From the NCBI GenBank assembly GCA_964458205.1, contig CAYWFJ010000003.1:1-42175 (forward strand): a DNA stretch of 42,175 nt, read 5' to 3'. The notes below the pieces were generated by a model. That model ran no database searches. It was not told the DNA's origin and saw nothing but the letters and a program-made list of their open reading frames with translations. The DNA is from Candidatus Micrarchaeota archaeon (GTDB lineage Archaea > Micrarchaeota > Micrarchaeia > Anstonellales > Anstonellaceae). Made by a program: the position numbers and the translations under genes. Each line of letters starts with the position of its first letter. Position 1 is the first letter of the stretch. Shown one piece after another: positions 3,122 through 31,652 of the stretch.

Positions 3122-5344
3122 TCATTTCCCTGGGCAGTCGCTGTCGCACTTGTCAACAGCATCAGCATAGATGGAGATAACTTCGGCGCCATAGGCATAG
3201 CCCTGCCCTTCGCCCGGGTTCGGATTCGGGCGGTTGCGCACATAGCGGATATAGTTCTCCTCGCCGCTGCAGGCTGAGCTGTTGTCGCGCTGGTGTATGA
3301 ACCCCGATATTGAGGGCGGCTGCAGGCCGAAATATTTGTTTGATGCAAGGTAATAAGCTGCCCAGCCGCGGTCCTCGTCCTTTATTCCGCCATCGCAGAC
3401 CCCGGTGCCAATCTGCCCCCAGTTGCTGCCGATGAACTGTTCCGCGCTGCTTAGGGCGGTTGCGAATTTGCTGACCCCGCAGCAGATGCTCATCTCGGGG
3501 TTGAACGGGTTGTAGTTCTCGCCTCCGCACTCCTGGACCACCTGCGGCATTGCAATGCCGTCCTGCACGTAAAGATGGCCTGGAAGCTCAATGCACTGCA
3601 TGAGGCCAAACGCGCAGCGCTTCTGCCCGGAGGGGCATTCGGAATGGCAGTCTGCCGGCGGAATCCCGGCTGCATCGCAGATTTCTGACATGTAATAGTA
3701 GTTCCTTGTGTCTTCCGGCGTGGTCGGGCGCTGGTTGTTGCAGGGCCTTGCAAGCGGCACGCAGAACGATGGCAGCGAAGGGTCGAAATGGCTTTCATGC
3801 TCTATTATCGAGCGGACGAATGTCGAGCTGATGTCCGCGCTGTCTGCGATTTCCTCTATCATTGGGTAAAGCGGGCAGTGGTCGGAGCTGAAAACCTGCC
3901 CTGCGAAATTGTCATAAATGCCTGCGGATTCGGATGACAGCTTCGTTTCCGAAACGCATACCTCGCCGCAGTTGAGGTTTGCGATTTTCTCAAGGGGCAG
4001 AACCTCGCCTTGCGCCATCTCCACGCCGACTTGCGTGTTTATTTCGGTTGAAACCACGTTGTACATCTTGCTGTTGTAGAAAAGCTCGCATTTGTCCCCA
4101 TATGCATTGCGGGAGAACATGAGGGGAGTCCGGTAGCTTGATGTCCCGAAATACTGGCACATCTGGGACCATGTATTGAGCGCAGGATGCTTCTGCTCGC
4201 CCGAAGGGTAAAGCACCCCGAAATCGCAACCCTGTATTCCGTTGCACGGAAGGGGCCCGGTGCGGTCTATGAACTCATACATGCTCATGCCTATTACCCC
4301 GGATGCCGCAAGATCCGAAGAAAGTGCGAAGAGGTTCTGGTAGAAGTTGCGCACCTTTGCGGCGCTCCAGGTGCAGCTGCCGTCGCTGCTGTTCCCTTCG
4401 CTTGCCCCGGCATAAAGCCATATTGTCGGCTTGAAATAGGTGCGCAGTATGTCGCGCGAGAAGAGGTAGTTCTGCCCGATTGCGTCGTCAATGCTGCAGG
4501 TCGGGTAATCGTTTGCGCGGAAACCGAAGCCTATAAGGTCCACCTTGTCATAATAGGGGTTTGTGCTGTCTTGCGTCGGGTCTGCCGGAGGGGGCCCGAT
4601 GACTCTTTCAATCGCATGCATATCCCCGGATTTTACCGCAAGGACGGTAAGGCACTTGTCGCACGTGCCAAGGGCGTCAATCTGCGCATGTATTGCCGAG
4701 ACGTCATCGCTCCCGTTGAGGAGTATTTCGGTCGTGAGAATGGCGGGCCCTGCGTTCCCGTCTTCGAAGATTTGTGCCATCTCCTGGAAATAAGCCGCAT
4801 CCATGCGGGTCTTGTTTGAATAATAAATATACAGCGGCAGCGCGTCCCGGTCAAGCCAGCACACCGCACGCGCGATATTTGGCATGCGCGGCGCCCTTGA
4901 CGGGCTGCTCACCACCCATTTTGTCGCAAGCTGCAGCGAATAGTTGCAATAAAGGTTCGCCATGCCGGTTGAAGCGAAGGAAGGCCCGTTGCCCACCATG
5001 AAAACGCGGGGGAATGACTCGTTGTTGAGGGTCTTGTTGATGAATTCCTCCTCGTTGCACTTCTCGAATTCGCACCTTCCGTCAACCAGGGTGATGTCAT
5101 ACCATGGCAAAAGGAAATTTTTTAGCCTTGCAAAGAAATTCGTGTTGTTCTTGCACATCATGCAATAGCAGGGCTGTGGGTCGTCTATTTCCAGGCAGGA
5201 CGGGTCGGCAAGATTGTTGAAGCGGGAAAATGTCATGTCGGTGTTGCCCATCTGCTCGTTTGCGGGCACATTTAGGGCGCATCCTGCCAAAAGGAAGAAT
5301 GCGGATAGGGCGGTTGCCAGCATAAATCGCGTTTTCAGGCTCAT
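3122..5344 (-). CDS. Secreted Cys-rich lipoprotein, 740 aa, with C-terminal SLT (lytic transglycosylase-like) domain split by a Cys-rich insert
   Basis: N-terminus MSLKTRFMLATALSAFFLLAGC is a signal peptide plus lipobox. About 34 Cys by hand count. SLT motifs occur in order: SIIEHESHFDP ... AFGLMQ ... GWAAYYLASNKY. The N-terminal ~480 aa show an alternating beta/alpha pattern (PLYIYYS, PAILTTE, LTVLAVK, VDLIGFGF, PTIWLYAG, VIGMSMYE), possibly a TIM-barrel hydrolase. The start overlaps the stop of the upstream giant gene (ATGA). Confidence 0.8.
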   Translation of the reverse strand: MSLKTRFMLATALSAFFLLAGCALNVPANEQMGNTDMTFSRFNNLADPSCLEIDDPQPCYCMMCKNNTNFFARLKNFLLPWYDITLVDGRCEFEKCNEEEFINKTLNNESFPRVFMVGNGPSFASTGMANLYCNYSLQLATKWVVSSPSRAPRMPNIARAVCWLDRDALPLYIYYSNKTRMDAAYFQEMAQIFEDGNAGPAILTTEILLNGSDDVSAIHAQIDALGTCDKCLTVLAVKSGDMHAIERVIGPPPADPTQDSTNPYYDKVDLIGFGFRANDYPTCSIDDAIGQNYLFSRDILRTYFKPTIWLYAGASEGNSSDGSCTWSAAKVRNFYQNLFALSSDLAASGVIGMSMYEFIDRTGPLPCNGIQGCDFGVLYPSGEQKHPALNTWSQMCQYFGTSSYRTPLMFSRNAYGDKCELFYNSKMYNVVSTEINTQVGVEMAQGEVLPLEKIANLNCGEVCVSETKLSSESAGIYDNFAGQVFSSDHCPLYPMIEEIADSADISSTFVRSIIEHESHFDPSLPSFCVPLARPCNNQRPTTPEDTRNYYYMSEICDAAGIPPADCHSECPSGQKRCAFGLMQCIELPGHLYVQDGIAMPQVVQECGGENYNPFNPEMSICCGVSKFATALSSAEQFIGSNWGQIGTGVCDGGIKDEDRGWAAYYLASNKYFGLQPPSISGFIHQRDNSSACSGEENYIRYVRNRPNPNPGEGQGYAYGAEVISIYADAVDKCDSDCPGK

Positions 5345-8300
5345 GCCTCTCCCCTCTTCCCGTATGCCGCCCTGGCTTCGGCATCGATTGCCTGCCTCTT
5401 TGCCTTAAACCGCAATGGTGAATACATTGAAAAGCCGTTTGCAAGCTCGGTGCCCACCATGGCAAGATAGGCGGGCCTGCGCTGCCTGTGCTTGCTGTGG
5501 TCGACAAGCGCAGTGTCAATCGAATGCCCTGTGAACTGCTCGAATTTCGAGTCAAAACCGTCTATGTGGCCCCCGCCATAGACGTAATTGGCATCTATCC
5601 TGCCCCCTGCATAATGGTAATGCGGCGCGTGCTCGGAAGCTGAAGCGGTGGATTTGCTTTCCCTGAATTTCTTGAACAGCAGACCCCGGATTACGCTTGA
5701 AATCGGGCTTGCCAGCATGAGCGTTCTTGTGTTTGTGAACGAATAATCCATCATCTCGGCTTGGAGCTTCATGGTATTGAGAAGAAGCGAAGTGTCGTCC
5801 TTGTAGACTCTTCTGTAGGCATCGGAGTGCGTTGAGAACCTGTCAGAGGAGGATTTCCATCTGCCCTTCTCGTCATATTCATCGGAATAGTAATGCTTCA
5901 TCACGGAAAGGGGGCCGCCGCTTGCCCGGTCCACCTCGGATGCGATTTGCGTGAAAGGGCTGTATTTGCCAGTCAGGAGGGACACGTCTATCATGCCCGG
6001 AACCATTGGCTTCCAGTAATTTGAATTGTGGTACGCGGAATAAAGCTCCATGAAGCGGTTCCGCGAGCCGTCTTCCTGTATGTCCCTGCCGCTGTGCCCT
6101 TCCCTGACTGAAACTGGCCTGCTGTCATATATTTTCGAAATCGGCTTGAAGTATTTTTTCCAAAGCTCCTCTTTCCGCGCATGGTCGTCTGTTGTGCGCC
6201 ATTCTTCGTATACTTCCAGCATCTTTGGGTCGCTTTTAAGCATCGTGTCGAGCTTGCGCTCGGCTTGGAGATACCTGTCAAGAGGGCGGGTAAGCCCGCT
6301 AAGAAGCGCCGGGGTTGCGTAGTGCTCGCTGTCTGTGAAAATGCTGCGCACGCCCCTGCGCACAATTCCTTCCTTGGTGGGGTCGCTTGGGCCTGCGCGC
6401 ATATATGCCCCTATGGCCACGCTGAGGGTGGATGAATCAAGCATGTTCTGCAGACGTGCGTGTGTATAGTCTGTCGGGACGGTGATAAGCGCCTTGAAAA
6501 TCGCAAGCTTGTCCTGCGTCCCCCATTTTGACCCGTTAAGCGAGTCTGTTTCGAAGTATGCTGGGTAAAACGAGCCTTTCCTTGCTCCGAAGCTTATGAA
6601 TTCGTTCTGGAACTTGTGCACGGTGCTCGCAAGCGAAATCGGGAGATGCATCGCCCGCTCCCATCCGGAGTTTATGGCCCAAAAAGTCGGGCGCTCATAT
6701 ACGTTCTGCCCGGTCTGGTATCCGACCATCATGGTATTCTCATAGCCCCCGCCTATTGCAACGCGCGGGTCCCTCATCACGCTCGATTCTGCAACCTGGA
6801 AAAAATCGCTTGCAAGCCCCTGCCGATAGCCGCTGTCAAAAAGCCCCATTACTGAAACCAGGTTCCGCCTGGAGCCGTACGGGGAATCGTGGGTCCCCAC
6901 CCAGTCCCTTGCGATGTCGTTCAATGCCTTGAATTCGTGCTTTGCGTCCGCATATGCCGCCTTGTATTCCTGCCTTATTGCCTTGGTTTCATCCTTGCGC
7001 GCAAGGTAATCCTCCCTGGAAATGAGCCTGTCCTTGTAAAGCGAATTGAGGGCCTTGTCCATGAGCTTTGCGGAATAGTATTTCGATTCCTCCGCAGCAA
7101 TTGCTTCCAGCGTATTTGCGGCAATACCCCTCCTGTAATTCCAGCCGACTGCCCAGGAGAATAACCCTCCGGAAGACTGTATCTTGCCCATTCGGTCGGC
7201 TATCAGGTCCTTTTGCTCGTCGCTCCCCCCTATCTTTTTGTATTCATCGGTATTGTTCTTATCAAAGAAATGGGTTTTTGGGTCGAATGTGAAGCGCTTG
7301 CCCCCAGCCCTCGTCTCCCCTTCCAATTCGTTCTTGAACTCCCAAAGCACGAATCTCGCCTGGGTCTGTGCGGTGTACCAGTTGCGCATGTTCTGCTTCC
7401 TTGTTTCATAGCCCGCGGTGACGAATTCCGACAAAGCGCTGCCCAAGGAAAGCTGCGCACGGATGACAGAGTTCCTGGATTTTGTATCCCCTGCGCCAAA
7501 CACGCCCTGGCTTTCAGGCTTGCCGGAGTATTTGAGGTCTGAGACTGTGACGGCCTTTACCTTTGCATTAGGGTCATAGCCCCCGCCGATTTGGGTGCCT
7601 GTGAGGGACATGCCTGCAAGCACCCGGAGGTCCTTGTTTGATTCGGCAAATGCCATTATCCCTGCGGTTGACGCATCCTTGCCTGGATGCGCATAAATCC
7701 AGCTTGCATCTCCCCCGGGGGTCTTATGCTGGACAAGTATTGCTATGTTCATCAATCGGTTCCCGTAGCTTGAGGATTCGTACCTTGAGATAAGCGGCGC
7801 CAGGTCTACGACCTTTCCTTTCCGGTAGACGCCATCCTCTATGCCGCAGGCTTTCAGGACGTCCTGGTTGTGCTCCAGCATCACCATTCCCCCCCTCCTG
7901 TCGGACGACAGCATGAAGCCGACCTTGCGCCTGTAGTCTGAGAAAGTGTAGCCCCTCTTGATAAGCTCGCTGTAGGCATCCCCGTTGAAAACGGGCTTTC
8001 CTTCTGCATCGTATTTCAGCTTGCCTTTCATGTCCACTGTTGTAAACTTGGCATCGTAATACTGGCTGTCCTTGTTCACCAATTGGGAAAAGAACATGGC
8101 AAGCATGCTGCGGTCCTCCCTTGCCTTGTTCAGGTATTTTGACATGTCGCTGTATACGAAGTTCGCCCATGTGGAGCCAGATAGGCCATGCCATGCGGCT
8201 TGTGATGCCATATTGTCCCAGCGCCTCGCCCGCAGAAGCGCCTCGTCAACCGAACGGTCGTATTGTATGTTCTGGGTCCTGAATTCAGCCCTCTTTGCCG

Positions 8301-11289
8301 CAAGCTCCGCAACCTCCCCTTCCCCGGCTTTGCGCTCCAAGAACCGCAGGTTGCCTGCTGAAAATGGGTCTTTGAGTATGCTGAAAACTTCCCGATTGCC
8401 CCTTTGGGGCCTGAAAAGCTCGGAAACACCGATTGCCCGGGCTTCCCATTGTTTCGCAAAGCTTGTGCCTTCATTGAGAAGATTGACGAATGCCCTTGCG
8501 GACACGGCTTCGGCCGCATGCGCCGCAGCCTGGCGCCGCACATCTTCAGGAATCTTGTCAGGAGGCACGCCCTTGGCAAGCCTTGCCTGCGCGGATGAAA
8601 GCTCGCCATGGTAAAGCGCCTGAAGCTCGGAGCCAAGCTTCCCGTCAATAACCGCCTGCGTCAGCCTTTCGAGGAAATGCTTCCTGCCTGCGCTGTTCGG
8701 CCGCATCAGGATGTCGAAATCATCCATGTCCTTTATTGAATAGGGGTTTCCGCCCTCGGAAACAATCCCAAGATGCTTCAGGCGGTCGTTGAGGTAAAAC
8801 GACAGCGGCCCGCCCTCGCCAAAAATGCACGCCTTCATCAGCCGGCTTACCCTCTCCTGGAAGCTCTCGTCTGCTTTTGCCTTGGAGCCTGAATTGATGC
8901 TGTCTGCGATGCCTTTCAGCTGGGAAAGGGCGGCTTCGCCGTCTTTCAGGTATTTTTCCTTGAAGCGGGCTGCCTTTGAATCGAAATCGGCTGCGGAGAG
9001 CTTAGATATGCCTTCGCCGAAAATCACGTCTATCTGCTTGTCCACCTTCTTAGCCAGCTCCCTGAAGGAAGGCAGGTTTGCCCTGTTCTCGACCAAAAGG
9101 GCGAAGCGCTCGGCTTCTTTCATCTTTTCTATGTCCGCCGGGGAGAGTTTTTTTCCGTTGGCGACCAGTGCGCCGCTTTCTGCCAATGCCTTAAGCTCCG
9201 CCTCGGCTTTCTTGAGAAGCGGGAAATTCCCTTTTTCATACGAGAGGTGGGTGCGCATTGATTCGACATCCTCTCGAGTCAGTGCCTTGAATTCCCCGTT
9301 TTTGAAATATATCATGCAGTCGCGGGCAAGCCCGCCTATGATGCCCGCAAGGAGCCCTGTCTGCTCCTCGATTTTCTTCCGCTCAGGCCCCTGCTTTTGG
9401 AGAGAAGCAAGCGCAAGGAGCGCTTTCTCAGGAGTAAGTGTCCCTGAATTGAGCCGTTCAATCACTCCTGAAACATCCGCTTCGCGTTTTTCGATGCCCG
9501 AGAGGAATGAAGCGATATGCGAAAATGCCTTCTTGTCGAGATTTTCAAGCCTTTCAAAGGCCTTCTTGGCGCTGTTAGGGTCAGACGTATTGAGGCTGGC
9601 AAGGATGCTATTGAGGGTGTCTTTCTGGTCCGATGTGAGCGATGGGTTTTTCAGGGCGCTTTTCACCAGCTTGATAGCCTCTTCGCGGGTTTCGTGGCTG
9701 CCGCGGGTCGAAACCTGGCTGATGAGAAGGGCCAGAAGCTGGTTGTACATTATGGTTGTGCTTGCCGCAAGGCCGATACGGTATTCCTCCGCCCTGTCGA
9801 GTATTTCGTTTTTCTTCTTGTCCGCAAAATCCGATTTCTTCATGAATTCGTCGAATTTCCCCGGGCTTAGCTTCTGGAATAAGGCGCCAAGGGAATTCTT
9901 GATGCGTTTCCCTGCGTCCTCTTTGTCCTGCTTGGTGAATGCAAGGAACGCAAGCGCGCGCCCGGTCTCCGAGCCTAGCCTCTTGGCGCCTATCTTGCTC
10001 GCCCTGAACTGCATGTATACGTCCATCGCCTTGACTGGGAGATTGACCACGCCCTTAACTATCGGGATTTTCTGTATGATGCGCGCGCCCTTGCTCTCGT
10101 CGAATGCGACCACTTTCTTCCTGGCGCGGTCAAGGCGGTTGTTCAGCCATTTCTCATAGCCCTTGCTCCCCCCGCCCCTTGCAAGCTTCAGTGCGCTGAC
10201 CAGCTGGTCCCCGGCAGCCATGACATGCGTCAGGCCTTCGCCGCCCATTTTTTGTATTGAATCCCATTTTTTTGCAACCCTGCCCGATGCATCTTTGGGC
10301 CTGCCGCGCAGTATTTCCCTAAGGATCGCATTTACCCTTTCCGACCCCTCTTTGCTGAGCGGCGAGCCGCCGGAAGTCTCCTTGTAGTATTCACGCAGCG
10401 CCTCTTTGACCTGTTCGCGGGCTTGGCGCCTTGCTTCCTTCCTGTCCTTCCCGCTTTTGCCCCGCGTCCGCATGTCCGCGGCCTCCCTTGCTGCGGTGAA
10501 AAGGGACTTGGTCGCCTTCCTGTTCTGGATTTCGACCCGCTTGATCATCGAATTTATCATCATGGGCAATGTCGGGCCTTTCAGCCTGTATTGCCTGCTT
10601 TTTGGGAGGCGGGGGGTGGTAAGGTCGAAAAGCGAGAGCGGATCCCTGCCGGAATAATACATTGAGGCAAGGAGCAGCCCCACGACAAGCATTGCCGGAA
10701 AGCAGTATGCTGCGTTTGAGGAAAGCGCCCCGGATATTGCCGGGCCAAGCGCAGATAAGGCGGCATTGTTCTTCGGGCAGGCGGTTATTGCCTGGAAGGA
10801 GGGCAGTATCGAAACCTCCCCGCTGGTGTTGCCTTCATAGCGGACCTGGAGAAGCCCGCATGATTTTTGGGACTCGATGTCGGCAACCCCCCCTGATGCG
10901 TTGATGTGATAGGCAAAAGAGCAGTTCGCTTCGCCTTTTGCGTTGGCGATTGCCGGGTTGCAGATGACGTTGCCGGATGAATCCGAGAGATTGTGCCCGT
11001 CAAAAGAGAAAATGAGGCGGGCTCCGGCAACTGGGGCAAACCCGAAGCGCACATCGTCTATGGATTCGTAGGATGACGGATCCATCAGGACGCCCACGTC
11101 CTGCTCCAGGCTTGGGGAAACCCTTTGGTGGAATTCGCTTGCGTTTGCAAAGCTTATCTTCACATAGGCGGTTTGGCCGGATGAAGAGATTGTGATGAAC
11201 GTGCGGGCGCCCTCGTCAGATGCGGGCAGCGCGCAATTGGCAGCGGAAAATAAAAGCAGCAGTATGAACAGCGGTGTTGCCCTGCGCAT
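5341..11289 (-). CDS. Giant membrane-anchored protein (~1982 aa): signal peptide, ~170-aa ectodomain, one TM helix, ~1750-aa charged/coiled cytoplasmic region
   Basis: ORF 5341..11313. ATG 11289 gives MRRATPLFILLLLFSAANCALP, a typical signal peptide, and fits a leaderless transcript from the TATA at 11313-11323. The ectodomain has Cys and N-x-S/T sequons (NAS, NLS, NCS, NAS, NTS). TM helix is AAYCFPAMLVVGLLLASMYYS, followed by K/R-rich sequence (positive-inside). A long KE-rich helical region follows. No Walker A seen by eye. Confidence 0.8.
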   Translation of the reverse strand: MRRATPLFILLLLFSAANCALPASDEGARTFITISSSGQTAYVKISFANASEFHQRVSPSLEQDVGVLMDPSSYESIDDVRFGFAPVAGARLIFSFDGHNLSDSSGNVICNPAIANAKGEANCSFAYHINASGGVADIESQKSCGLLQVRYEGNTSGEVSILPSFQAITACPKNNAALSALGPAISGALSSNAAYCFPAMLVVGLLLASMYYSGRDPLSLFDLTTPRLPKSRQYRLKGPTLPMMINSMIKRVEIQNRKATKSLFTAAREAADMRTRGKSGKDRKEARRQAREQVKEALREYYKETSGGSPLSKEGSERVNAILREILRGRPKDASGRVAKKWDSIQKMGGEGLTHVMAAGDQLVSALKLARGGGSKGYEKWLNNRLDRARKKVVAFDESKGARIIQKIPIVKGVVNLPVKAMDVYMQFRASKIGAKRLGSETGRALAFLAFTKQDKEDAGKRIKNSLGALFQKLSPGKFDEFMKKSDFADKKKNEILDRAEEYRIGLAASTTIMYNQLLALLISQVSTRGSHETREEAIKLVKSALKNPSLTSDQKDTLNSILASLNTSDPNSAKKAFERLENLDKKAFSHIASFLSGIEKREADVSGVIERLNSGTLTPEKALLALASLQKQGPERKKIEEQTGLLAGIIGGLARDCMIYFKNGEFKALTREDVESMRTHLSYEKGNFPLLKKAEAELKALAESGALVANGKKLSPADIEKMKEAERFALLVENRANLPSFRELAKKVDKQIDVIFGEGISKLSAADFDSKAARFKEKYLKDGEAALSQLKGIADSINSGSKAKADESFQERVSRLMKACIFGEGGPLSFYLNDRLKHLGIVSEGGNPYSIKDMDDFDILMRPNSAGRKHFLERLTQAVIDGKLGSELQALYHGELSSAQARLAKGVPPDKIPEDVRRQAAAHAAEAVSARAFVNLLNEGTSFAKQWEARAIGVSELFRPQRGNREVFSILKDPFSAGNLRFLERKAGEGEVAELAAKRAEFRTQNIQYDRSVDEALLRARRWDNMASQAAWHGLSGSTWANFVYSDMSKYLNKAREDRSMLAMFFSQLVNKDSQYYDAKFTTVDMKGKLKYDAEGKPVFNGDAYSELIKRGYTFSDYRRKVGFMLSSDRRGGMVMLEHNQDVLKACGIEDGVYRKGKVVDLAPLISRYESSSYGNRLMNIAILVQHKTPGGDASWIYAHPGKDASTAGIMAFAESNKDLRVLAGMSLTGTQIGGGYDPNAKVKAVTVSDLKYSGKPESQGVFGAGDTKSRNSVIRAQLSLGSALSEFVTAGYETRKQNMRNWYTAQTQARFVLWEFKNELEGETRAGGKRFTFDPKTHFFDKNNTDEYKKIGGSDEQKDLIADRMGKIQSSGGLFSWAVGWNYRRGIAANTLEAIAAEESKYYSAKLMDKALNSLYKDRLISREDYLARKDETKAIRQEYKAAYADAKHEFKALNDIARDWVGTHDSPYGSRRNLVSVMGLFDSGYRQGLASDFFQVAESSVMRDPRVAIGGGYENTMMVGYQTGQNVYERPTFWAINSGWERAMHLPISLASTVHKFQNEFISFGARKGSFYPAYFETDSLNGSKWGTQDKLAIFKALITVPTDYTHARLQNMLDSSTLSVAIGAYMRAGPSDPTKEGIVRRGVRSIFTDSEHYATPALLSGLTRPLDRYLQAERKLDTMLKSDPKMLEVYEEWRTTDDHARKEELWKKYFKPISKIYDSRPVSVREGHSGRDIQEDGSRNRFMELYSAYHNSNYWKPMVPGMIDVSLLTGKYSPFTQIASEVDRASGGPLSVMKHYYSDEYDEKGRWKSSSDRFSTHSDAYRRVYKDDTSLLLNTMKLQAEMMDYSFTNTRTLMLASPISSVIRGLLFKKFRESKSTASASEHAPHYHYAGGRIDANYVYGGGHIDGFDSKFEQFTGHSIDTALVDHSKHRQRRPAYLAMVGTELANGFSMYSPLRFKAKRQAIDAEARAAYGKRGEA

Positions 11290-11312
11290 GGTTGCTTTTT
11301 GGAAATCCTGCA

Positions 11313-11323
11313 TTTATATATTA
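11313..11323. promoter_or_regulatory. Shared bidirectional TATA box for the two divergent operons
   Basis: TTTATATATTA sits in the 69-nt spacer between ATG 11289 (minus) and ATG 11359 (plus). It is about 25 nt from ATG 11289 and about 25 nt from the GGAGG SD at 11346-11350. Confidence 0.55.
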
Positions 11324-11358: not shown

Positions 11359-12732
11359 ATGCTTGATTTCATTCTCATGACCCCTGAAATGCTCCTTTCA
11401 AGCTCGGGCGTCCTCATAGCCCTTGCCACTGCGATATCCATCATTGCCCTCTCGTTCATGGCGGGTGAATTCTTCTCAATGCCCACTCTCCGCGGATTTG
11501 CAAAGGCGGAACTCTATGAGCTTGGCGTAACCGCAGTCGTGATTGCCATATCCATAATGCTCATAACCCCGGGGGGGCCGTTCGACATGATTACGCGCGG
11601 CTTTCTGGATCCGGGAACCCCTGCGGATAGGGCATGCAAGGAATGGAAATCAATCCATGGGCAATACGACCCGGTTTCGGGGAATTACCCGGACGGCAAC
11701 CTCGCTTTTGCGCATGCGGACTATTTCATAGGGTGCAGGGTGGATTTCCTGACCCAGATGACATCGGCACTCACCTTGGGCATCCTGGACACGAACAGCG
11801 GGATAATGATAGCCAAGCTGACCACCGCCTACATGAACCTGATGCTGATGGAGTTTTTCATGGGGTTCCTCTCCACGGTCAATTTCCATCTGACGATTCA
11901 GACGCCCATATTGATAGGGATAGACATAGGGTTGCCGCCCCACGCCGGGCTCACCCCGCTGCTGGAATTCAACACCACCCTTACGGACATGGTGGGCAGC
12001 ACCATTGCCGCGATGACCGCAAAGAAGATGCTGCTGAATTTCATAGAGGAGAATGCAATCGGGGTTTTCCTGGTGCTTGGCATTTTCCTGCGCGCGCTCC
12101 CGTTCACCCGGAAAACCGGGTCCACGATAATAGCGATTGTGTTTGCCGCCTATTTCGTTTTTCCGACATCGGTTCTCCTGAACCAGCAGATATGGCGGGC
12201 GATAGAAAACCCCCCTGGCCCGCCAGGCTGCCTAGAGGTCGGGACTGCGTGCACGGCGGATTCGGAATGCTGCTCAGGCAATTGCGCAATGGGGGCGGGC
12301 AGATGCGCTGCGATGCTGAGCGATTTTGACCATGTGAAATCGTTCATAAACACGTGCTACGGAAAAAGCGAGGCTGAAGTCCGCGATTCGCTTGACAGCC
12401 AGGCGCAGCACCAGCAGGCCCAGCTGGAGCAGTATTTTGACGACCAGGGAGAGGAGGCAGTATCCACAAGAACCACCAGCCGCCTCAAAAGCTCGCTTGG
12501 CACTGCGGGAAACGTCATAGTCGGCCCGATGCTCAGCATGAACATCCCCATCGGGAGCGGCCCGCTGACTTTCGGGTTTGTCGAAAAGGCCATGAATGAC
12601 ATGGGCAGGCTCATGCTCATAATATTGATATTCACAGTGATAGAAATACTGGTCACCATAACCCTCATGAAGGACTTTGCCATCATGATAGGCGGTGAAC
12701 CGCGGGTTCTTGGCATAAGCAAGCTGGTGTGA
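11359..12732 (+). CDS. Polytopic membrane protein, paralogue P1 of 6 (LRxxPxTRxxG family, unnamed), with knottin-like 6-Cys loop
   Basis: ORF 11338(TTG)..12732. ATG 11359 is preceded by GGAGG. Multiple hydrophobic helices. Core motif FLRALPFTRKTGSTIIAIVFAAYFVFP (from 12088). Loop CLEVGTACTADSECCSGNCAMGAGRC (12229-12306). C-terminal TM plus tail IGGEPRVLGISKLV. Confidence 0.8.
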   Translation: MLDFILMTPEMLLSSSGVLIALATAISIIALSFMAGEFFSMPTLRGFAKAELYELGVTAVVIAISIMLITPGGPFDMITRGFLDPGTPADRACKEWKSIHGQYDPVSGNYPDGNLAFAHADYFIGCRVDFLTQMTSALTLGILDTNSGIMIAKLTTAYMNLMLMEFFMGFLSTVNFHLTIQTPILIGIDIGLPPHAGLTPLLEFNTTLTDMVGSTIAAMTAKKMLLNFIEENAIGVFLVLGIFLRALPFTRKTGSTIIAIVFAAYFVFPTSVLLNQQIWRAIENPPGPPGCLEVGTACTADSECCSGNCAMGAGRCAAMLSDFDHVKSFINTCYGKSEAEVRDSLDSQAQHQQAQLEQYFDDQGEEAVSTRTTSRLKSSLGTAGNVIVGPMLSMNIPIGSGPLTFGFVEKAMNDMGRLMLIILIFTVIEILVTITLMKDFAIMIGGEPRVLGISKLV

Positions 12733-12734
12733 CC

Positions 12735-13658
12735 ATGGCGTTTGGGGGATTCATCCTGGAAATTTTTGCTGCGGGGGGCATCGGAGATGTCGCGCTGTCC
12801 CTTTTCGCGGTTTCCATAGCAGTAATGGCTTCGATAATCGCGCTTGCCTACATGGCATCGCAATTCTTCAGGAAGCCCGAATACGAGGGTTTTGTAACAC
12901 TTGAGATATACCAGCTCATCGTATCCGTCCTGCTGTTCGTCTCAATAGGGGGGGTCGCGGTTTTTGCAAATTCCCTGATGTATGCGTTTTCTGGCTCTGA
13001 CCCGATAGACACGGGCAGAGCATATCTCTCATATGTAAGCGAGCAGATTGCGCTTCCGGTTATGGTCGGGTTTGAGACATTGAAGCTCACAATGCAATTC
13101 ATAGGTTCGATAAGCATGAGATGGGGCGCCAGCGTGTGGGGGGTGGTGATGGTCCCTTTCGGGGCATGCCAGGTGCTTGAAAAGGTGGCGGACGTTATCC
13201 TGATGATATCGGTGCCATTCATATCAAGCCTCCAGGTGCAGATGGTAATCCTCGAAATGATTGAGGGTTTGGCGCTCTCATTCGTCCTCCCTGCTGGCGC
13301 GCTTCTTAGGATATTCCCCCCGACAAGGGACGCGGGCACCTTCCTGATGTGCTCCGCGCTTGCAGCGCTCACGGTCTACCCGTTCACATATGTGATGCAT
13401 GACAAGATAGTCAGGGTGATGGTGTCTGGTGAAAGCGAGAATCCGACAGCAAACGACATGCTTCAGAGCCAAAACCCCGGATTTGCAAGGGTAATGTCCG
13501 CAAGCTGGGCGATTGACCCGGAAAAAATGCTGTTCAGGCCCCTGCGCCTCCTAAGCTACCTTGTCCTTCAGGGGGCTTTCCTGCCTGCGCTGAGCATGGT
13601 CATAACCATTTCGTTCATAAAAGGAACCACCAAATTCGTGAGCCAGAAATTCGGGTGA
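12735..13658 (+). CDS. Polytopic membrane protein, paralogue P2 of 6
   Basis: The start (GTG 12729 or ATG 12735) overlaps or abuts the P1 stop. Core motif LLRIFPPTRDAGTFLMCSALAALTVYPFTYV (13305 onward). The N-terminal TM region aligns by eye with P1 and P6 (..IIALAYMASQFFRKPEYEGF..). Confidence 0.78.
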   Translation: MAFGGFILEIFAAGGIGDVALSLFAVSIAVMASIIALAYMASQFFRKPEYEGFVTLEIYQLIVSVLLFVSIGGVAVFANSLMYAFSGSDPIDTGRAYLSYVSEQIALPVMVGFETLKLTMQFIGSISMRWGASVWGVVMVPFGACQVLEKVADVILMISVPFISSLQVQMVILEMIEGLALSFVLPAGALLRIFPPTRDAGTFLMCSALAALTVYPFTYVMHDKIVRVMVSGESENPTANDMLQSQNPGFARVMSASWAIDPEKMLFRPLRLLSYLVLQGAFLPALSMVITISFIKGTTKFVSQKFG

Positions 13659-13662
13659 GCCT

Positions 13663-13779
13663 TTGGGTAAACCGGACGCATCCTCAAAAACGGCGCTTCT
13701 TGCCCTCTTTCTTGCATTAGCCATGCTGGCTTGCGGATGCACCGGCTCTGATGGGGGGCAAAGCGGTATAGTCCTGTAG
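13663..13779 (+). other. 38-codon lipoprotein-signal-like ORF in the same frame as P3, ended by TAG 13777-13779 (N-terminal extension of P3, or a micro-ORF)
   Basis: TTG 13663 is preceded by GGGTGA (13653-13658). The product is MGKPDASSKTALLALFLALAMLACGCTGSDGGQSGIVL*. The P3 reading frame continues directly after the TAG. This piece resembles the N-terminal extension of P4 (MMKTPTARQAAFAIALVAIALAMFASMPCG). Confidence 0.5.
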
Positions 13780-13806
13780 ATTTTTGGTTGGGAAAACCTC
13801 GTTGCA

Positions 13807-14973
13807 GTGGCTCTTGCCGCAACAGCAAGCCTTTTGGGCCTTGCATATATCGCCGCATCTTTTGTGAATGATGACAAGCTTAAGGCATGGGTCAAAAAAG
13901 AGGCAGGGCAGCTGGTTTTCTCAATTATGATAATAATATGCGCAATTGCGATCGTTGACAGCATGGATTTCTGGCTTAAAACATTCAGCCTTGCAGGCTC
14001 TCCGGCCTGGCAGGACTATGTTGGAAACCACATATGCTGCGACCCTGCCGTTGTGCCCCAGTGCCAGGCGGGGCTATGGAAACGCCCGTGCCATGTGGAG
14101 CTCGCGATGGACCACCTGCAGTTTGTCTATGAGACCCTGCGGAAGAATGTCATGACTTATCTTTGGAATTACTCGGCCATTGCAACGCTTGCCAATCTCC
14201 ACACCAGCATAAACATCATGAATAGGCCCGACTTCGGGAGCCTGAGCCTGAGCCCGTTAACCTACCTGTCCGCAGGAGTTGACTATTTCACCATACTCAT
14301 TGGGCTTGCAACCAAAGCCATGATGATGACCCGCACGCAGCAGGCAGCCCTGGATTATCTGCATTATCCAGTATTCGGGGCTTTCATGTCCATGGGGCTC
14401 GTGCTGCGCATACTCCCATTCACAAGAAAATTGGGGGGCATGCTAATAGCCATATCGCTTTCGTTGTATGTGGTCCTGCCGATGTTTTACGTCCTAAACA
14501 GCGCAATATTATGGGGCTTCATTGCGGCGCCTGCAGGGGGAACGCCCTCAACAGTGGGGGCGTCATACGACACCGGCGCATATACGCCCGGGTATGGCGC
14601 AGGGGAAGCTGAAAACTATGATGCGGTTGACCCTGAGAATGTCCTTGAAGGGGGCTATGTTGCGAATATAGACGTATGCAACAGCACAGGGGCCGATGCC
14701 GAACAGGCAAGGGCTGAAAGGCAGCAGGATGAGGGATTTATCCAAAGCAACTGGAAAATGATGCGCGGGACAAAGTGGCATGCCGGCCTGCAGACAATGC
14801 TTACCGGCCCCGGGCTCTCGTATGATGGCCCGCTCGGGGTCCTTGCGATGATAATGGTATTCTCGACCGTGCTCCCGTTCCTTGGACTGATGACTTCGCT
14901 TGCCGCATTCAAGGTCCTTTCCCCGCTGCTCGGGGGGGATGTCGAGTTAGGGCTGCTCTCGAGGCTGATATGA
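13807..14973 (+). CDS. Polytopic membrane protein, paralogue P3 of 6 (possibly disrupted or read-through; see 13663..13779)
   Basis: ORF from GTG 13807, which has only a weak SD. Core motif VLRILPFTRKLGGMLIAISLSLYVVLPMFYV. Cys- and sequon-containing loops (HICCDPAVVPQCQ, CNSTG). Tail LGGDVELGLLSRLI. The stop overlaps the P4 start (ATGATG). Confidence 0.7.
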   Translation: MALAATASLLGLAYIAASFVNDDKLKAWVKKEAGQLVFSIMIIICAIAIVDSMDFWLKTFSLAGSPAWQDYVGNHICCDPAVVPQCQAGLWKRPCHVELAMDHLQFVYETLRKNVMTYLWNYSAIATLANLHTSINIMNRPDFGSLSLSPLTYLSAGVDYFTILIGLATKAMMMTRTQQAALDYLHYPVFGAFMSMGLVLRILPFTRKLGGMLIAISLSLYVVLPMFYVLNSAILWGFIAAPAGGTPSTVGASYDTGAYTPGYGAGEAENYDAVDPENVLEGGYVANIDVCNSTGADAEQARAERQQDEGFIQSNWKMMRGTKWHAGLQTMLTGPGLSYDGPLGVLAMIMVFSTVLPFLGLMTSLAAFKVLSPLLGGDVELGLLSRLI

Positions 14974-16292
14974 TGAAAACTCCCACTGCAAGGCAGGCTG
15001 CTTTCGCAATTGCGCTGGTCGCCATCGCGCTGGCGATGTTCGCAAGCATGCCTTGCGGAAATTATTTCGGGTTTGACGTTTTCGGCACCAACCCGCCTAA
15101 CGTGGTCACCTGCGACCAGCCGGCAAACGGACTTTTCTGGCTTGAGCTCACCATAATCGCGCTTGCGCTCTCGGTGGCGCTCGTCTCTGCAGCCTGGATA
15201 CTCAACGGCGTTTTTGGCGGCCCGAAATACAACGAATTCCTGAAAGAGCGCCTATGGAGCATGCTTGAGACCGCGGTGATAATGGGCATTTTCATAGCCA
15301 TGCTGGTTTCGCTCCAGCAATATGGGAACGACAATCTCGACACGGCGAGGGCATACACAAAAATAATACGGAATAGCGCGGTGGAGGATTTTGGGAAAAC
15401 GATAGCGGGAACTGCCCTGTTTTCATTCGTATCGAATGCCAACCCGAAAATACACCTTTTCAAGGGCCATTTCGGGTCCTATATCGATTTCCAGCTGGCA
15501 CCCATGTTCAAGCCGATATTCGACATGATGGGGCTGATAATACAGCTCCAGACCACGGTTGTGCTTCAGTGGTTTGCCCATGACTACCTGCTCTGTTTTG
15601 CAAAAAACTACCTGCTGACCCTCCTTTTGCCAGTCGGGCTTTTCCTTCGCGGGATGGGCATCAAAACCGCAGGCAACGCCATGATGGGGGTTGCGATTGC
15701 CCTTTATTTTGTCTATCCGTTCATGATTGTCCAAATAGGGGAGATGGTCACAAAACACTATGAGAATGAGATTTCGGCGCTCACCATTGCAGAGGGCAAC
15801 ATACACCTGAGCCTTTGCTTCAGCAGCAAGCCCATATGCTGCATGGGCGGGACCCCTGACCCGGTCAACGATACCCTGGTCATACCGAACGGGAATGGGT
15901 TCATAAGCGTCAAAAAAGTCCTTACCAACCCCCTCCTTGGTTGCAGCTACTCGACAACCAATGTAAGGATATGGGAAAGCGCGGGAGGGGTGGTGGCAAG
16001 CAGCGCAGCCTTCATGCTGATGAAAGCCATGATGTCCGGCTCGGGCACGTCATCGAGCAGCACGGGCTTGAGCACCGCTTCAGGGTTCATGAATATCCTG
16101 ATGCTGCTGGCCCTTTTCCCGCCCATGGTGATGCTGGTGCTTAGCTTCATATACGGGCTTGCTTATTTCTTCTTCATCGTAAGCATGGTGCTGCCGATAT
16201 TCGCCATATTCATAACTCTCACGCTCGCAAAGGAGATTACCAAGGCGCTTGGGACGGAAATAGACCTTTCAGCGCTTGAAAAGCTGATATGA
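14970..16292 (+). CDS. Polytopic membrane protein, paralogue P4 of 6 (with extra N-terminal signal/anchor)
   Basis: ATGA overlap with P3. Divergent core FLRGMGIKTAGNAMMGVAIALYFVYPFMIV. Cys loop SLCFSSKPICCMGG..VNDT. S/T-rich stretch SGSGTSSSSTGLSTASG. Tail LGTEIDLSALEKLI. Confidence 0.78.
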   Translation: MMKTPTARQAAFAIALVAIALAMFASMPCGNYFGFDVFGTNPPNVVTCDQPANGLFWLELTIIALALSVALVSAAWILNGVFGGPKYNEFLKERLWSMLETAVIMGIFIAMLVSLQQYGNDNLDTARAYTKIIRNSAVEDFGKTIAGTALFSFVSNANPKIHLFKGHFGSYIDFQLAPMFKPIFDMMGLIIQLQTTVVLQWFAHDYLLCFAKNYLLTLLLPVGLFLRGMGIKTAGNAMMGVAIALYFVYPFMIVQIGEMVTKHYENEISALTIAEGNIHLSLCFSSKPICCMGGTPDPVNDTLVIPNGNGFISVKKVLTNPLLGCSYSTTNVRIWESAGGVVASSAAFMLMKAMMSGSGTSSSSTGLSTASGFMNILMLLALFPPMVMLVLSFIYGLAYFFFIVSMVLPIFAIFITLTLAKEITKALGTEIDLSALEKLI

Positions 16293-16307: not shown

Positions 16308-17366
16308 ATGGGATTGAACATTGCCGAAAACATCTGCGCCCCCATCCTGTCCGGGGCCCCGTCGGATTTTCCTGGAAGTTTCGGGATTCTTGGCGCTGAC
16401 TGGCTGCAGCTGACTTTCCTTGCCCTCCTTGCATCGCTCCTAGCTCTTTCTATAATATACATGCTTTCATTCTTCCTTAAGCAGAACGCAGCAGCAGCGT
16501 GGGCGAAATTCGAGCTCTTCCAGCTTTTTGCAACAGCCATGCTGGTGGTCATGACCTCTTCCGTGCTGATAGTCGGGATGTGCTCGTTTGACATGCGCAT
16601 TCTTGACCCGGACAGATATGCGGATCCGCAAAACCCGAATCGGCCCATGAACATGCTGGATATTGTGGACAGGTATTTTGGCGAGCTTGAGAAGGCGGGC
16701 GGGATGCTTTTTGCCGCCTTCCTGTTCATCATCAATATCCTGACCAACCTATTCAAGGCGATGTTCCTAAGCTCGCCACTGGGAGTGGGGGGCAATGAAA
16801 GCCCTCTTGAATCGCTTATGCAGCTCAACAACATGTTCTTCATCCTGATAAGCGGATTCGTCATCTCGTTCCTCATGCTTGGCGTGCAGACCAGGATGGT
16901 GGAGTACATCAGCATAGCTGCGCTCTATTACCTGTTTCCCTTCGGGGTTTTTTTCAGGGCGTTTGAGCCGACCCGCGCTTTTGGCGGAACCCTGATAGGC
17001 CTCTCAATCTCCCTTTTCCTGTTCTACCCCGCCCTCCTGGTTTTCAACGACTATGTTGTTTACGGGCCGGTTTCCGAAATCAACCAGGAGCTGGAAGATA
17101 GCATAGATAGGGGCGACACGCAGGTTTCTGGGCAGCAAGGCGGGATGCCCGACAGCCAGGTAATAGTGAATGGAATAGAAAGCGGCGACCTGGCATCCGG
17201 GATAGGCGGTTCCGTCCTTGTGGTTTTCAAGCCGCTCATGCTGTATTTCGTGGCAGCGGTCGTCCTGCCCATAATCAATTTCATAATACTGGTGGAAGTT
17301 GCAAGGGGGCTCACGCGCCTCCTGGGAGAAGAGGTGGACATAACCAACCTCACGAGGCTGATATGA
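16308..17366 (+). CDS. Polytopic membrane protein, paralogue P5 of 6
   Basis: ATG 16308 is preceded by GGGTG. Core FFRAFEPTRAFGGTLIGLSISLFLFYPALLV. Tail LGEEVDITNLTRLI. The stop overlaps the P6 start. Confidence 0.78.
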   Translation: MGLNIAENICAPILSGAPSDFPGSFGILGADWLQLTFLALLASLLALSIIYMLSFFLKQNAAAAWAKFELFQLFATAMLVVMTSSVLIVGMCSFDMRILDPDRYADPQNPNRPMNMLDIVDRYFGELEKAGGMLFAAFLFIINILTNLFKAMFLSSPLGVGGNESPLESLMQLNNMFFILISGFVISFLMLGVQTRMVEYISIAALYYLFPFGVFFRAFEPTRAFGGTLIGLSISLFLFYPALLVFNDYVVYGPVSEINQELEDSIDRGDTQVSGQQGGMPDSQVIVNGIESGDLASGIGGSVLVVFKPLMLYFVAAVVLPIINFIILVEVARGLTRLLGEEVDITNLTRLI

Positions 17367-18361
17367 TGGCATTTGATTTGACTTCGTCCGGATGGATAGG
17401 CATTTCGGTGCTCGTGGCCCTGGTTTCCCTCTTCATCACCGTGCTTTTGCATATGCTCGCCCAGGCGTTCAGCCTCCAGAGCCTTGGCATGTGGGCAAAA
17501 TCCGAATATGCACAGGTGGCGGTCAGCTTCCTGATAATCTTCTTCGCGGCAGTGATGCAAAGCGCAGGTGCGGAAGTGGTCAGCCAGGTCACAGCCGAAG
17601 TTGCGGCGGCATCGGGGAACATGATGCTCACCTCCAGCATGTCGGCGAATATGGACCCGGTGGAAATAGCCAAGGCGTACATAAACAAAATCACCGGTTG
17701 CCAAATAACGCTTTACAAAATAGCATACTGGCTCAACTTCATCATGGAGCCGCTGAGCAAAATCAGCCTGGAGGCCATGGGTTTTGAAGGGATTACTGGG
17801 GGCGCCCTCTCAGGATATGTCTCTTTTTTCCACTACGTAATGAATAACCTTACATATGTGATCCTCTTCAACTATGTCCAATACAGCGTGCTTCTGCTCT
17901 CTAAATACTCCATGCTTTACCCGGTACTCCCAATCGGTCTTGTTCTTCGCGCGTTCGCGCCGACCAGGGGGGTTGGAGGGCTGATGGTTGCGTTCGCGCT
18001 TGGCTTCGCATTCGTGTTCCCATTCACGTACGTGCTGGTGGTTGCAATAACCCCGAACACCACATACACCATGTGCAATGAGATAACCCTAACCGCTGGC
18101 GATTTGCCACAAAAAGACGAGCAGCCTTGCTACAACAGCAAGGCGGGAACAAGGGAACAGTCTTTCAGGCTAAAAAGCAACATGCAGAAAATATCCGGGA
18201 TAGTCGGATTCATGCAGAATGCGATAGGGATAATCTTTCTGCAGGCGGTAATCTACCCATTGGTCTCGTTGATTATGACTTTCACGTTCATCAGGCAGAC
18301 CAGCTCGCTGTTCGGAGCCGACCTTGCAGAGATAGGGCGCGGGCTCATCAAGATAATATAG
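17363..18361 (+). CDS. Polytopic membrane protein, paralogue P6 of 6
   Basis: ATGA overlap with P5. Core VLRAFAPTRGVGGLMVAFALGFAFVFPFTYV. Loop TPNTTYTMCNEITL..QPCYNS. Tail FGADLAEIGRGLIKII. Confidence 0.78.
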   Translation: MMAFDLTSSGWIGISVLVALVSLFITVLLHMLAQAFSLQSLGMWAKSEYAQVAVSFLIIFFAAVMQSAGAEVVSQVTAEVAAASGNMMLTSSMSANMDPVEIAKAYINKITGCQITLYKIAYWLNFIMEPLSKISLEAMGFEGITGGALSGYVSFFHYVMNNLTYVILFNYVQYSVLLLSKYSMLYPVLPIGLVLRAFAPTRGVGGLMVAFALGFAFVFPFTYVLVVAITPNTTYTMCNEITLTAGDLPQKDEQPCYNSKAGTREQSFRLKSNMQKISGIVGFMQNAIGIIFLQAVIYPLVSLIMTFTFIRQTSSLFGADLAEIGRGLIKII

Positions 18362-24648: not shown

Positions 24649-24798
24649 TCAGCTGGTGGAATAGACCGAGCGCCAGACCGCCATATGCGACACGCCCAGG
24701 GCATCTGCCACCTTGCGAAGCGGCAGCCGTTCCTCGAAATAGAGGAAGCGCGCGGCTTCGAGCTTTTCCTGCGAGAGGGATTTGTGCCTTCCTTTCAT
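24649..24798 (-). CDS. 49-aa helix-turn-helix protein (Hin/transposase-type HTH)
   Basis: Not in the ORF track because it is under 60 aa. Hand translation: MKGRHKSLSQEKLEAARFLYFEERLPLRKVADALGVSHMAVWRSVYSTS*. SD GGTGAT lies 4 nt upstream of the ATG. Confidence 0.5.
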   Translation of the reverse strand: MKGRHKSLSQEKLEAARFLYFEERLPLRKVADALGVSHMAVWRSVYSTS

Positions 24799-24806
24799 AA
24801 AATCAC

Positions 24807-25142
24807 CTAACAGCACATCCTGCCTGCAAGGAAACTCGCATTCCCCTGCTCAAAATTGCCCTTTGCCTGGTTGAGAGCCGCGGTTTTCACTATTCCCTCG
24901 TCCAAGGGGGCGCCAGCCCGCATCCCTTTTTCCGCCCTTTTCTTCCCACGCTCAGCCCTTCCAAACTCGCGAAGAGCAGGATGCGCCTCAAGCTCAGCTA
25001 AGACTTGGGCATGCGCTTCTCTTTTGCGGAGATAACGCGCCTCAAGCGCGGCTACCGCGTTTGGATGCGTGTCCGTCCGCTTCCTGTGCGTCTTGGGGTT
25101 TGCCAAGCATAGTGCGCCGCACCTGTGATTTCCAGCCAGCAT
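24807..25142 (-). CDS. Hypothetical 111-aa protein, co-oriented with the small HTH gene
   Basis: ATG 25142 is preceded by GAGGTG. The product is basic and Ala/Arg-rich. No family recognised. Confidence 0.4.
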   Translation of the reverse strand: MLAGNHRCGALCLANPKTHRKRTDTHPNAVAALEARYLRKREAHAQVLAELEAHPALREFGRAERGKKRAEKGMRAGAPLDEGIVKTAALNQAKGNFEQGNASFLAGRMCC

Positions 25143-31633: not shown

Positions 31634-31652
31634 GAAAATCAACTTAAGAAAT

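Follow-up and report, generated by a model that had tools for sequence, protein, structure and literature searches.

What does an archaeon with a tiny genome do with a giant protein that seems to turn most of its length toward the cytoplasm? The genomes of Micrarchaeota and other DPANN archaea measure only about 1 Mb, and to our knowledge almost nothing has been established at the molecular level about their envelope biology or their contacts between cells. We address this question in a 42,175-nucleotide stretch of contig CAYWFJ010000003.1 (assembly GCA_964458205.1) from a Candidatus Micrarchaeota archaeon of the family Anstonellaceae, referred to here in its full length as the window. It carries a 15.2-kb module of eight genes, made up of one giant gene, six paralogous membrane protein genes, and a lipoprotein gene. 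This one module takes more than 1% of a roughly 1-Mb genome, and its two main families are without a sequence or fold match. The combination itself is unusual: an inward-facing giant, six paralogs frozen in number and order, and a lipoprotein that resembles a peptidoglycan hydrolase. An initial annotation, made from the sequence alone, had described the giant gene product as a membrane-tethered cytoplasmic scaffold. Our analysis supports a topology in which a small part of the protein lies outside and the bulk inside, and it leads us, tentatively, to view the protein as a subunit of an envelope-spanning complex specific to Micrarchaeota.

The giant gene and its product

The longest open reading frame (ORF) over the giant gene extends from 5341 to 11313 on the minus strand and encodes 1990 amino acids (aa). 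The public gene call of the same sequence starts at Met9, giving a product of 1982 aa plus a stop codon at 5341 to 11289, and thus shares the end at 11289 with the initial annotation. The 69-bp divergent spacer between the giant gene and the first paralog gene contains a single TATA-like element, TTATATATTA (11314-11323, strand not assigned), which is probably a bidirectional promoter of both genes. Because of the position of this element, we infer that a leaderless start at 11289 is correct and that a start at 11313 is excluded, as there is no room for it. Residues are numbered here according to the 1982-aa protein, except in composition figures, which follow the numbering of the 1990-aa ORF. 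Relatives at 17-30% identity align to the giant protein from end to end, indicating that the ORF has not arisen by chance. The type I protein proposed in the initial annotation is thus a real 1982-aa product with a signal peptide and full-length relatives, and it is the founding member of an orphan family of Micrarchaeota.

A small exterior and a predicted cytoplasmic bulk

The amino terminus of the giant protein carries a Sec-type signal peptide (aa 1-23, MRRATPLFILLLLFSAANCALPA; 11221 to 11289, minus strand, as for all features of this protein) with the n-region MRR and a hydropathy peak of 1.81 at residues 5-23; nearly all relatives with an intact N terminus have a hydrophobic peak there. 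It is followed by an ectodomain of 169 aa (aa 24-192; 10714 to 11220) with five N-x-S/T sequons, four cysteines, and a sequence pattern that looks beta rich, in agreement with the earlier estimate of about 170 outer residues bearing five sequons and cysteines. The conserved cysteines C110/C123 and C144/C171 likely form two disulfide pairs. A single transmembrane (TM) helix at aa 193-212 (AAYCFPAMLVVGLLLASMYY; 10654 to 10713) gives a Kyte-Doolittle 19-residue mean of 1.82, the only further peak above 1.6. SGRDPLSLFDLTTPRLPKSRQYRLKGP stands directly after the helix, and the net charge is +4 in the 30 residues past it versus +1 in the 20 residues ahead of it. The roughly 1770 residues beyond the helix contain only marginal, nonconserved hydrophobic peaks (1.52 and 1.27), three cysteines, and three sequons, or 0.17 sequons per 100 residues against 2.6 per 100 outside.

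The same layout is retained across the family. All 52 relatives with an intact N terminus have one TM helix, located at position 165-246 and preceded by an ectodomain whose length is about 170-220 aa and which holds 2-6 cysteines, and none of the 52 has a second conserved TM helix. Their 1300-2100 C-terminal residues hold 0-9 cysteines and sequons at chance-level density, compared with the 2-6 cysteines packed into an ectodomain of about 170 residues. A distant branch (P0046-P0073, e.g., P0050, P0051, and P0060) additionally carries one to three C-terminal zinc-ribbon motifs of the form CPxHG...CPxC. Zinc ribbons are typically an intracellular feature. The window protein has none and ends instead in a variable tail rich in His, Gly, and Tyr (aa 1886-1982). 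Taken together, the zinc ribbons, the asymmetry of cysteines and sequons, the positive-inside rule, and hydropathy make an orientation with the N terminus out and the C terminus in well supported, with the bulk of the protein predicted to be cytoplasmic. The initial annotation had proposed this arrangement, with one helix, a lysine- and arginine-rich stop-transfer sequence, and a cytoplasmic bulk, and had asked whether orthologs keep the single helix, which they do.

The most conserved stretch of the family lies directly at the membrane. This juxtamembrane signature, MYYSGRDPLSLFDLTTPRLPK (aa 210-230; 10600 to 10662), has seven residues that are invariant even in the deep alignment (Y212, G214, P217, D222, T224, P226, and P229). 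Together with the end of the TM helix, it forms the best-conserved 40-residue block of the protein, with a mean column identity of 79%. Written as MYYSG[RK][DN]PLSLFD[IL]TTP[RK]LP, the motif would make a sharp marker by which to recognize the system in genomes. We also observed an invariant cysteine at the outer helix end, C196 (codon 10702-10704), within a C[FLIV]P motif and outside the likely ectodomain disulfide pairs. This residue could be an unpaired cysteine available for an intermolecular disulfide or a modification.

Conservation and predicted structure of the cytoplasmic part

Conservation is distributed unevenly over the cytoplasmic part. A moderately conserved region at aa 231-520 (9730 to 10599), which includes a RIPxV...LDV.AQ.R.S block, is followed by a variable, indel-rich region at aa 521-1000 (8290 to 9729) that is rich in lysine, glutamate, and arginine and is probably helical with no canonical coiled coil. 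The conserved C-terminal region occupies aa 1001-1885 (5635 to 8289), is rich in aromatic residues, and gives way to the variable tail. ORF residues 226-950 contain 10.8% K, 7.7% E, and 7.2% R with 5.8% F+Y+W, and ORF residues 1100-1990 contain 11.4% F+Y+W and 8.4% G, so that the aromatic content is twice that of the first cytoplasmic half. The initial annotation had thus correctly recognized an aromatic- and glycine-rich final stretch of about 900 residues. Its account of the first cytoplasmic part holds for the charged composition but not for the coiled appearance. A heptad-register score compared with shuffled sequences, a crude home-made test, found no window of at least 35 residues above the 99th percentile, and a Pro+Gly content of 10-11% throughout also argues against a coiled coil.

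Within the C-terminal region, the residues that are invariant across the deep family (Q1308, E1501, M1505, R1506, G1527, Q1528, E1532, R1745, and G1765) and those that are nearly so (R1312, D1507, G1734, and D1823) include members grouped in three motifs, ESS.MRDPR, GY.TGQ..YE, and DGSRNRF...PG. The first two motifs make up an invariant polar core, ESSvMRDPR...GYqTGQnvYE (6694 to 6789), which holds E1501, M1505, R1506, G1527, Q1528, and E1532. The third belongs to a second conserved block, G.D..eDGSRNRFmELY...W.P..PG (5995 to 6090), in which R1745 and G1765 are invariant. The acidic, amide, and arginine side chains among these invariants speak more for a site of ligand binding or catalysis than for a purely passive scaffolding role. 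A motif search found neither a Walker A nor an HExxH motif in the giant protein.

An AlphaFold2 model of aa 1001-1885, built from 15 sequences, is mostly helical with small beta elements (predicted local distance difference test score [pLDDT], 62.6; predicted template modeling score [pTM], 0.48). Foldseek returned no significant match for this model, with best E values of 0.74 in the PDB and 0.13 in BFVD, where the best matches were tape-measure-like helices that were likewise not significant. Sequence comparisons gave a similar result. The giant protein matches no entry in Pfam, NCBIfam, PADLOC, or PHROGs beyond subthreshold noise (ATPTG10 and TPR_26), and when 25 diverse relatives were compared with Pfam at an E value of ≤1, no family was matched by more than one of them. 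Searches of PDB sequences with the single giant sequence and with profiles yielded coiled-coil or helical noise only, and the profile matches to solved structures were noise-level hits to long helical or coiled-coil proteins.

Six membrane paralogs in a fixed order

The initial annotation had placed the giant gene beside an array of membrane proteins, and this array proves to be a set of six divergently oriented paralogs whose order is fixed in every complete locus (about 20). In the window, the six genes lie upstream of the giant gene on the plus strand, at 11359 to 12732 (paralog 1, 457 aa from the ATG at 11359), 12729 to 13658 (paralog 2), 13807 to 14973 (paralog 3), 14970 to 16292 (paralog 4), 16308 to 17366 (paralog 5), and 17363 to 18361 (paralog 6). 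Their polytopic products are mutually related at 19-24% identity and share the core motif LR.FP.TR..GG. Using a hidden Markov model (HMM) of the six, we found exactly six such genes on the opposite strand, adjoining the giant gene, in every locus with enough flanking sequence (about 20 loci). The best-matching window paralog runs from paralog 1 to paralog 6 outward from the giant gene, with best scores several-fold above the second best. This positional orthology in the complete loci indicates an old six-fold duplication with no dispensable copy and a frozen order. A fixed array of this kind fits the pattern of subunits of an obligate hetero-oligomer.

From hydropathy, charge, and the positions of conserved cysteines, we infer that the paralogs have about five TM helices, with the N terminus out and the C terminus in, and two large outer domains, which bear cysteines in paralog 1. 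An AlphaFold2 model of paralog 1, built from 60 sequences, is confident (pLDDT, 81.6; pTM, 0.76) and combines helices of great length with small beta hairpins and an insert rich in Cys; Foldseek found no match for it in the PDB (best E value, 0.96). We considered whether the paralogs are VirB6/TrbL proteins and rejected this identity, as there was no Pfam TrbL match, there were zero PDB profile matches, and there was no fold match despite the confident model. The six-paralog family is also confined to Micrarchaeota and is without annotation.

The most conserved residues of the paralogs are R252, R258, G261, S262, and those of the C-terminal tail, all of which are on the cytoplasmic side in the predicted topology. 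The last 20 or so residues of each paralog are almost invariant within their class (16-29 loci; L001-L031). The ending LGG[ED]x[ED][IL]xxL[ST][KR]L[IV]-COOH is common to five of the six classes, and that of paralog 2 is FIKGTxKFxSQKLG. These tails look like cytoplasmic docking peptides and are candidates for that role. Separately, we note that an unusual 148-nt gap (13659-13806) precedes paralog 3 in the window, while the remaining paralog genes abut or overlap. Compared with its orthologs (433 aa in L001), the window copy of paralog 3 (388 aa) is missing about 40 N-terminal residues, which could reflect a difference in start site or a small lesion.

A lipoprotein with a diverged lytic transglycosylase-like domain

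The lipoprotein gene (3122 to 5344, minus strand) has a 4-nt overlap with the giant gene and encodes a protein of 740 aa with 34 cysteines and the lipobox LLAGC. In 24 distinct loci, among them the distant L032, L033, and L035, an ortholog is the next gene downstream of the giant gene. The C-terminal part of the lipoprotein is a putative, diverged SLT (lytic transglycosylase) domain with a weak match, at an E value of 0.059 for PF01464 in the window copy, whose score of 13.4 bits is under the Pfam gathering threshold of 21.3 bits. PF01464 is matched by 11 of 21 orthologs, with a best E value of 2.2e-5, and the top PDB sequence match of the lipoprotein is MltC at the catalytic motif (E value, 0.24). 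For the motifs expected in a family 1 lytic transglycosylase (a catalytic E-S motif, GLMQ, and AYNxG), the candidates EHES, FGLMQ, and AAYYLASNKYFG (AYYLA) are legible in the window copy, and the second of these varies in the orthologs (G.AQ). The N-terminal domain, which is conserved and about 370 residues long, had no match in our searches. The organism is not known to make peptidoglycan.

Locus L002, from a distant relative, departs from this arrangement. Its lipoprotein (442 aa) is without the SLT-like C-terminal domain, and a separate SLT_2 (PF13406) gene is present some 8 kb downstream, at 24670-24965. Glycan cleavage may be retained in trans in this genome.

Distribution of the giant family and genomic neighborhood

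A word-indexed search identified 16 relatives of the giant protein, each 1650-2290 aa long. Searching 1.84 billion representative proteins with a HMMER profile of the C-terminal 886 residues extended the family to 74 relatives, 53 of which have E values below 1e-30. The matched region falls in the C-terminal half of every near-full-length match (1400-2400 aa), and the remainder are short fragments. Source labels retrieved for the relatives read Micrarchaeota, Micrarchaeia, Anstonellales, or Anstonellaceae, with a few exceptions that are likely misbinned or mislabeled. The giant gene is carried by 31 GTDB species representatives, and members of the distant branch are only 16-20% identical to the window protein. 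Most of these lineages also have the six paralogs alongside the giant gene.

The module is flanked by housekeeping genes, and the genes of the window include those for ribosomal protein L15e, fibrillarin, SecD/SecF, phosphoenolpyruvate synthase, and a diphthamide synthesis protein. We considered SecDF as a possible member of the module and rejected it, because SecD/SecF adjoin the array only in the closer clade. No relative of the giant protein was found on the 2.9 million viral contigs of IMG/VR. A mobile-element, viral, or defense origin was rejected on the basis of this result, the absence of a PHROGs or PADLOC match, and the syntenic housekeeping flanks.

Two further genes of the window deserve mention. 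A second giant ORF at 25391-30943 (minus strand, 1850 aa), directly downstream of the fibrillarin gene (30977-31642), has no TM helix and looks as if it were composed of helical repeats. It matches no Pfam or NCBIfam entry and, considered as a possible paralog of the giant protein, proved to be unrelated. Among the housekeeping genes, a free-standing protein of 328 aa with a helix-turn-helix and a LAGLIDADG-like part is encoded at 22489-23475 (plus strand) and may be a domesticated or remnant homing endonuclease. The 42-kb window contains no tRNA gene detectable by ARAGORN and no Rfam family at the gathering threshold.

Possible function of the module

The explanation that we prefer, to which we would give slightly less than an even chance, is that the giant protein is the cytoplasmic platform subunit of an envelope-spanning complex specific to Micrarchaeota and encoded by the eight genes. 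In such a complex, the six paralogs would form a hetero-oligomeric membrane core, which the giant protein would join through its TM helix and the invariant juxtamembrane motif. Its cytoplasmic part of about 1750 residues would serve as the platform, with the variable helical spacer bearing the conserved C-terminal domain, whose cluster of invariant Glu, Arg, Asp, and Gln residues would bind or process a cytoplasmic ligand. The C-terminal tail peptides of the paralogs are candidate ligands that could dock on this platform, and the small disulfide-bonded ectodomain is a candidate partner, on the outside, of the cotranscribed lipoprotein. Several observations count in favor of a complex. They include the conserved topology, the near-exclusive occurrence of the family in Micrarchaeota, the SLT matches among the lipoprotein orthologs, and the position of the module among housekeeping genes and off viral contigs. 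Conservation is concentrated at the predicted cytoplasmic face of the membrane in the giant protein and the paralogs alike, and the genes are closely linked, as seen in the 4-nt overlap, the shared 69-bp spacer with one TATA-like element, and the frozen synteny. The scaffold or basal platform role that was first proposed for the giant protein is plausible rather than established, and its invariant polar residues could equally mark an enzyme or ligand site.

Our best guess is that the module as a whole would build or remodel a structure of the cell surface or of cell contact. The presence of an SLT-like lipoprotein suggests glycan cutting, directed at either the wall of a partner cell or the cell's own surface polymer. 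An attack on the partner's wall has been proposed for other DPANN archaea (PMC8204110), and Anstonellales, the order to which carriers labeled Anstonellales or Anstonellaceae belong, have been placed by proposal with the DPANN that depend least on a host (PMC8561730, PMC12892359). Given this proposed low host dependence and the core genomic region in which the module resides, a housekeeping envelope role is at least as likely as host attack. A bolder version, which we consider rather unlikely, makes the module a new kind of archaeal trans-envelope nanomachine. Here, the six noninterchangeable 5-TM paralogs would form a pseudo-hexameric channel or base with the lipoprotein, as a glycan cleaver, capping it on the outside, and the giant protein would gate, power, or load it from inside. 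Such a machine would open the partner's wall or the cell's own surface layer and move material across.

Several observations weigh against the platform complex. Gene linkage alone is no proof of a complex, and the six paralogs are not beside the giant gene in L033 (10 kb upstream) or over the shorter flanks of L034 and L035. No paralog match was found in the available upstream DNA of L032, L033, and L035, which reaches the full 10 kb only for L033; in L033, L034, and L035, the array may be elsewhere in the genome or may have diverged beyond HMM detection. The cluster is without an ATPase or other recognizable energy source, and specifically, there is no gene for a VirB4/VirD4-type P-loop ATPase between 3122 and 18361. 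The AlphaFold2 model of the C-terminal region is only moderately confident at its pLDDT of 62.6, and the invariant motifs fall in low-confidence segments. The topology of the paralogs is a prediction from hydropathy, charge, cysteine positions, and AlphaFold2 secondary structure. Finally, the carriers labeled Anstonellales or Anstonellaceae belong to an order that has been proposed to be comparatively host independent (PMC8561730, PMC12892359), which weakens a role in host contact.

Other functions would account for parts of the same evidence. The giant protein could be an enzyme that is anchored in the membrane and synthesizes envelope polymers or glycoconjugates on the cytoplasmic side. Its conserved C-terminal domain would be catalytic by means of acidic residues and arginine, with the paralogs as polytopic carriers, flippases, or polymerases and the lipoprotein trimming the product outside. 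The C-terminal invariants are compatible with an enzyme in being polar or charged and grouped in short motifs (Q1308, E1501, R1506, Q1528, E1532, and R1745, with D1507 and D1823 near invariant), as are a partner with a glycan-cleaving SLT-like domain and a housekeeping neighborhood that SecDF adjoins in one clade. However, no glycosyltransferase, synthase, flippase, or other enzyme was matched in Pfam, NCBIfam, or the PDB or by fold, the motifs lie in the low-confidence parts of the AlphaFold2 model, and a variable spacer of about 750 residues would be unusual in an enzyme, which leaves this possibility doubtful. It is unlikely that the giant protein acts as a stand-alone receptor or signal transducer, its ectodomain sensing the lipoprotein or the surface state and relaying this to a large effector domain in the cytoplasm, with the paralogs as mere syntenic neighbors. 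Neither Pfam nor NCBIfam reveals a kinase, cyclase, HAMP, PAS, or DNA-binding output domain, including in 25 relatives, and a frozen six-paralog array in about 20 loci across roughly 17-30% identity is hard to reconcile with neutral synteny. A receptor would nevertheless agree with the single-pass architecture and the small disulfide-bonded ectodomain, and the tightest linkage is indeed that between the giant and lipoprotein genes, which is kept in L033 and L035 even where upstream paralog matches are missing.

A tether between the membrane and the cytoplasm, such as a cytoskeletal, division, or nucleoid anchor, would bridge a distance within the small cell by its long helical region and have its C-terminal domain bind nucleic acid or a filament, a task for which distant relatives would use their zinc ribbons. 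Those zinc-ribbon motifs, the length-variable and K/E/R-rich middle region, and the weak profile likeness to long helical proteins are in keeping with this idea, which we nonetheless regard as quite unlikely: the heptad signal is missing, Pro+Gly amounts to 10-11%, the zinc ribbons are missing from the window protein, and there is no similarity to SMC, CdvA, SepF, ESCRT, FtsZ-binding, or other known tethers. Most described giant proteins of DPANN archaea are extracellular, among them SLT-domain proteins that reach 3000 aa in Woesearchaeota and Pacearchaeota (PMC8204110), and the giant protein might by this precedent be a conventional adhesin or S-layer-type protein whose topology has been mispredicted and whose bulk is outside. 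This is highly improbable. A signal peptide is followed by a stop-transfer helix with positive charge after it, the C-terminal bulk of the 52 relatives has few cysteines and chance-level sequons compared with the Cys-bearing ectodomain, and relatives carry C-terminal zinc ribbons. The initial annotation had named homology to adhesins or S-layer proteins and additional TM segments as signs of an outer bulk. Comparison of the window protein and 25 relatives with Pfam and NCBIfam gave no domain of the Ig, cadherin, beta-helix, lectin, or S-layer type, and we found no conserved second TM helix.

If the parts of the module form one machine, as the platform complex would require, they would constitute a new type of archaeal envelope complex and a target for cryo-electron tomography and proteomics in co-cultures or enrichments of Micrarchaeota. 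Cryo-electron tomography of a Micrarchaeota-related co-culture has revealed host-derived nanotubes and unexplained symbiont structures, with no proteins named that match the module (PMC11329633).

Comparison with known systems

We found no description of the giant family or the gene cluster in the literature. The module appears undescribed, and its giant and six-paralog families appear to have no detectable relative in the sequence or fold libraries searched. On these two grounds, we rate the module as lying outside known kinds of systems. The closest analogies seem to be organizational and not homologous.

Proteins of type VII secretion systems (EccC) and of the type III secretion and flagellar export gates resemble the giant protein in having an N-terminal anchor, a large cytoplasmic part, and polytopic partners encoded alongside. 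They contain P-loop ATPase or export-gate domains, whereas the giant protein has no Walker A motif, no AAA or FtsK domain, and no family or fold match. Type IV secretion and conjugation-like systems (VirB6/TrbL and VirB1; archaeal Ced/Ted) are comparable in placing a set of membrane proteins beside an SLT-like, putatively glycan-cleaving protein and in the idea of a trans-envelope apparatus. In contrast to them, the module is without a VirB4, VirD4, or HerA ATPase, and its paralogs have no TrbL/VirB6 match in Pfam and no fold match in the PDB. Nor do these systems contain an equivalent of the giant protein, which spans the membrane once and has most of its 1982 aa in the predicted cytoplasmic part. 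The likeness is one of gene content only.

The array of paralogs, with its number fixed at six, its positional orthology, and no copy lost, recalls obligate hetero-oligomers built from anciently duplicated paralogs, such as the Mcm2-7, CCT, and proteasome alpha/beta rings. Noninterchangeable subunits of one ring or complex would be expected to show this pattern. Those rings are soluble, whereas the paralogs of the module span the membrane several times and are not homologous to the ring subunits, and a ring formed by these six would be a prediction from the analogy. The lipoprotein, in turn, finds its nearest parallel in the extracellular SLT proteins of Woesearchaeota and Pacearchaeota (fam00969; Castelle et al. 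2021, PMC8204110), which also represent a surface lytic transglycosylase-like domain specific to a DPANN lineage. In that family, from a different phylum, the giant itself is extracellular and bears the SLT domain, whereas the Micrarchaeota module has its SLT-like domain on a lipoprotein encoded by a gene of its own (740 aa), and its giant protein is predicted to face the cytoplasm.

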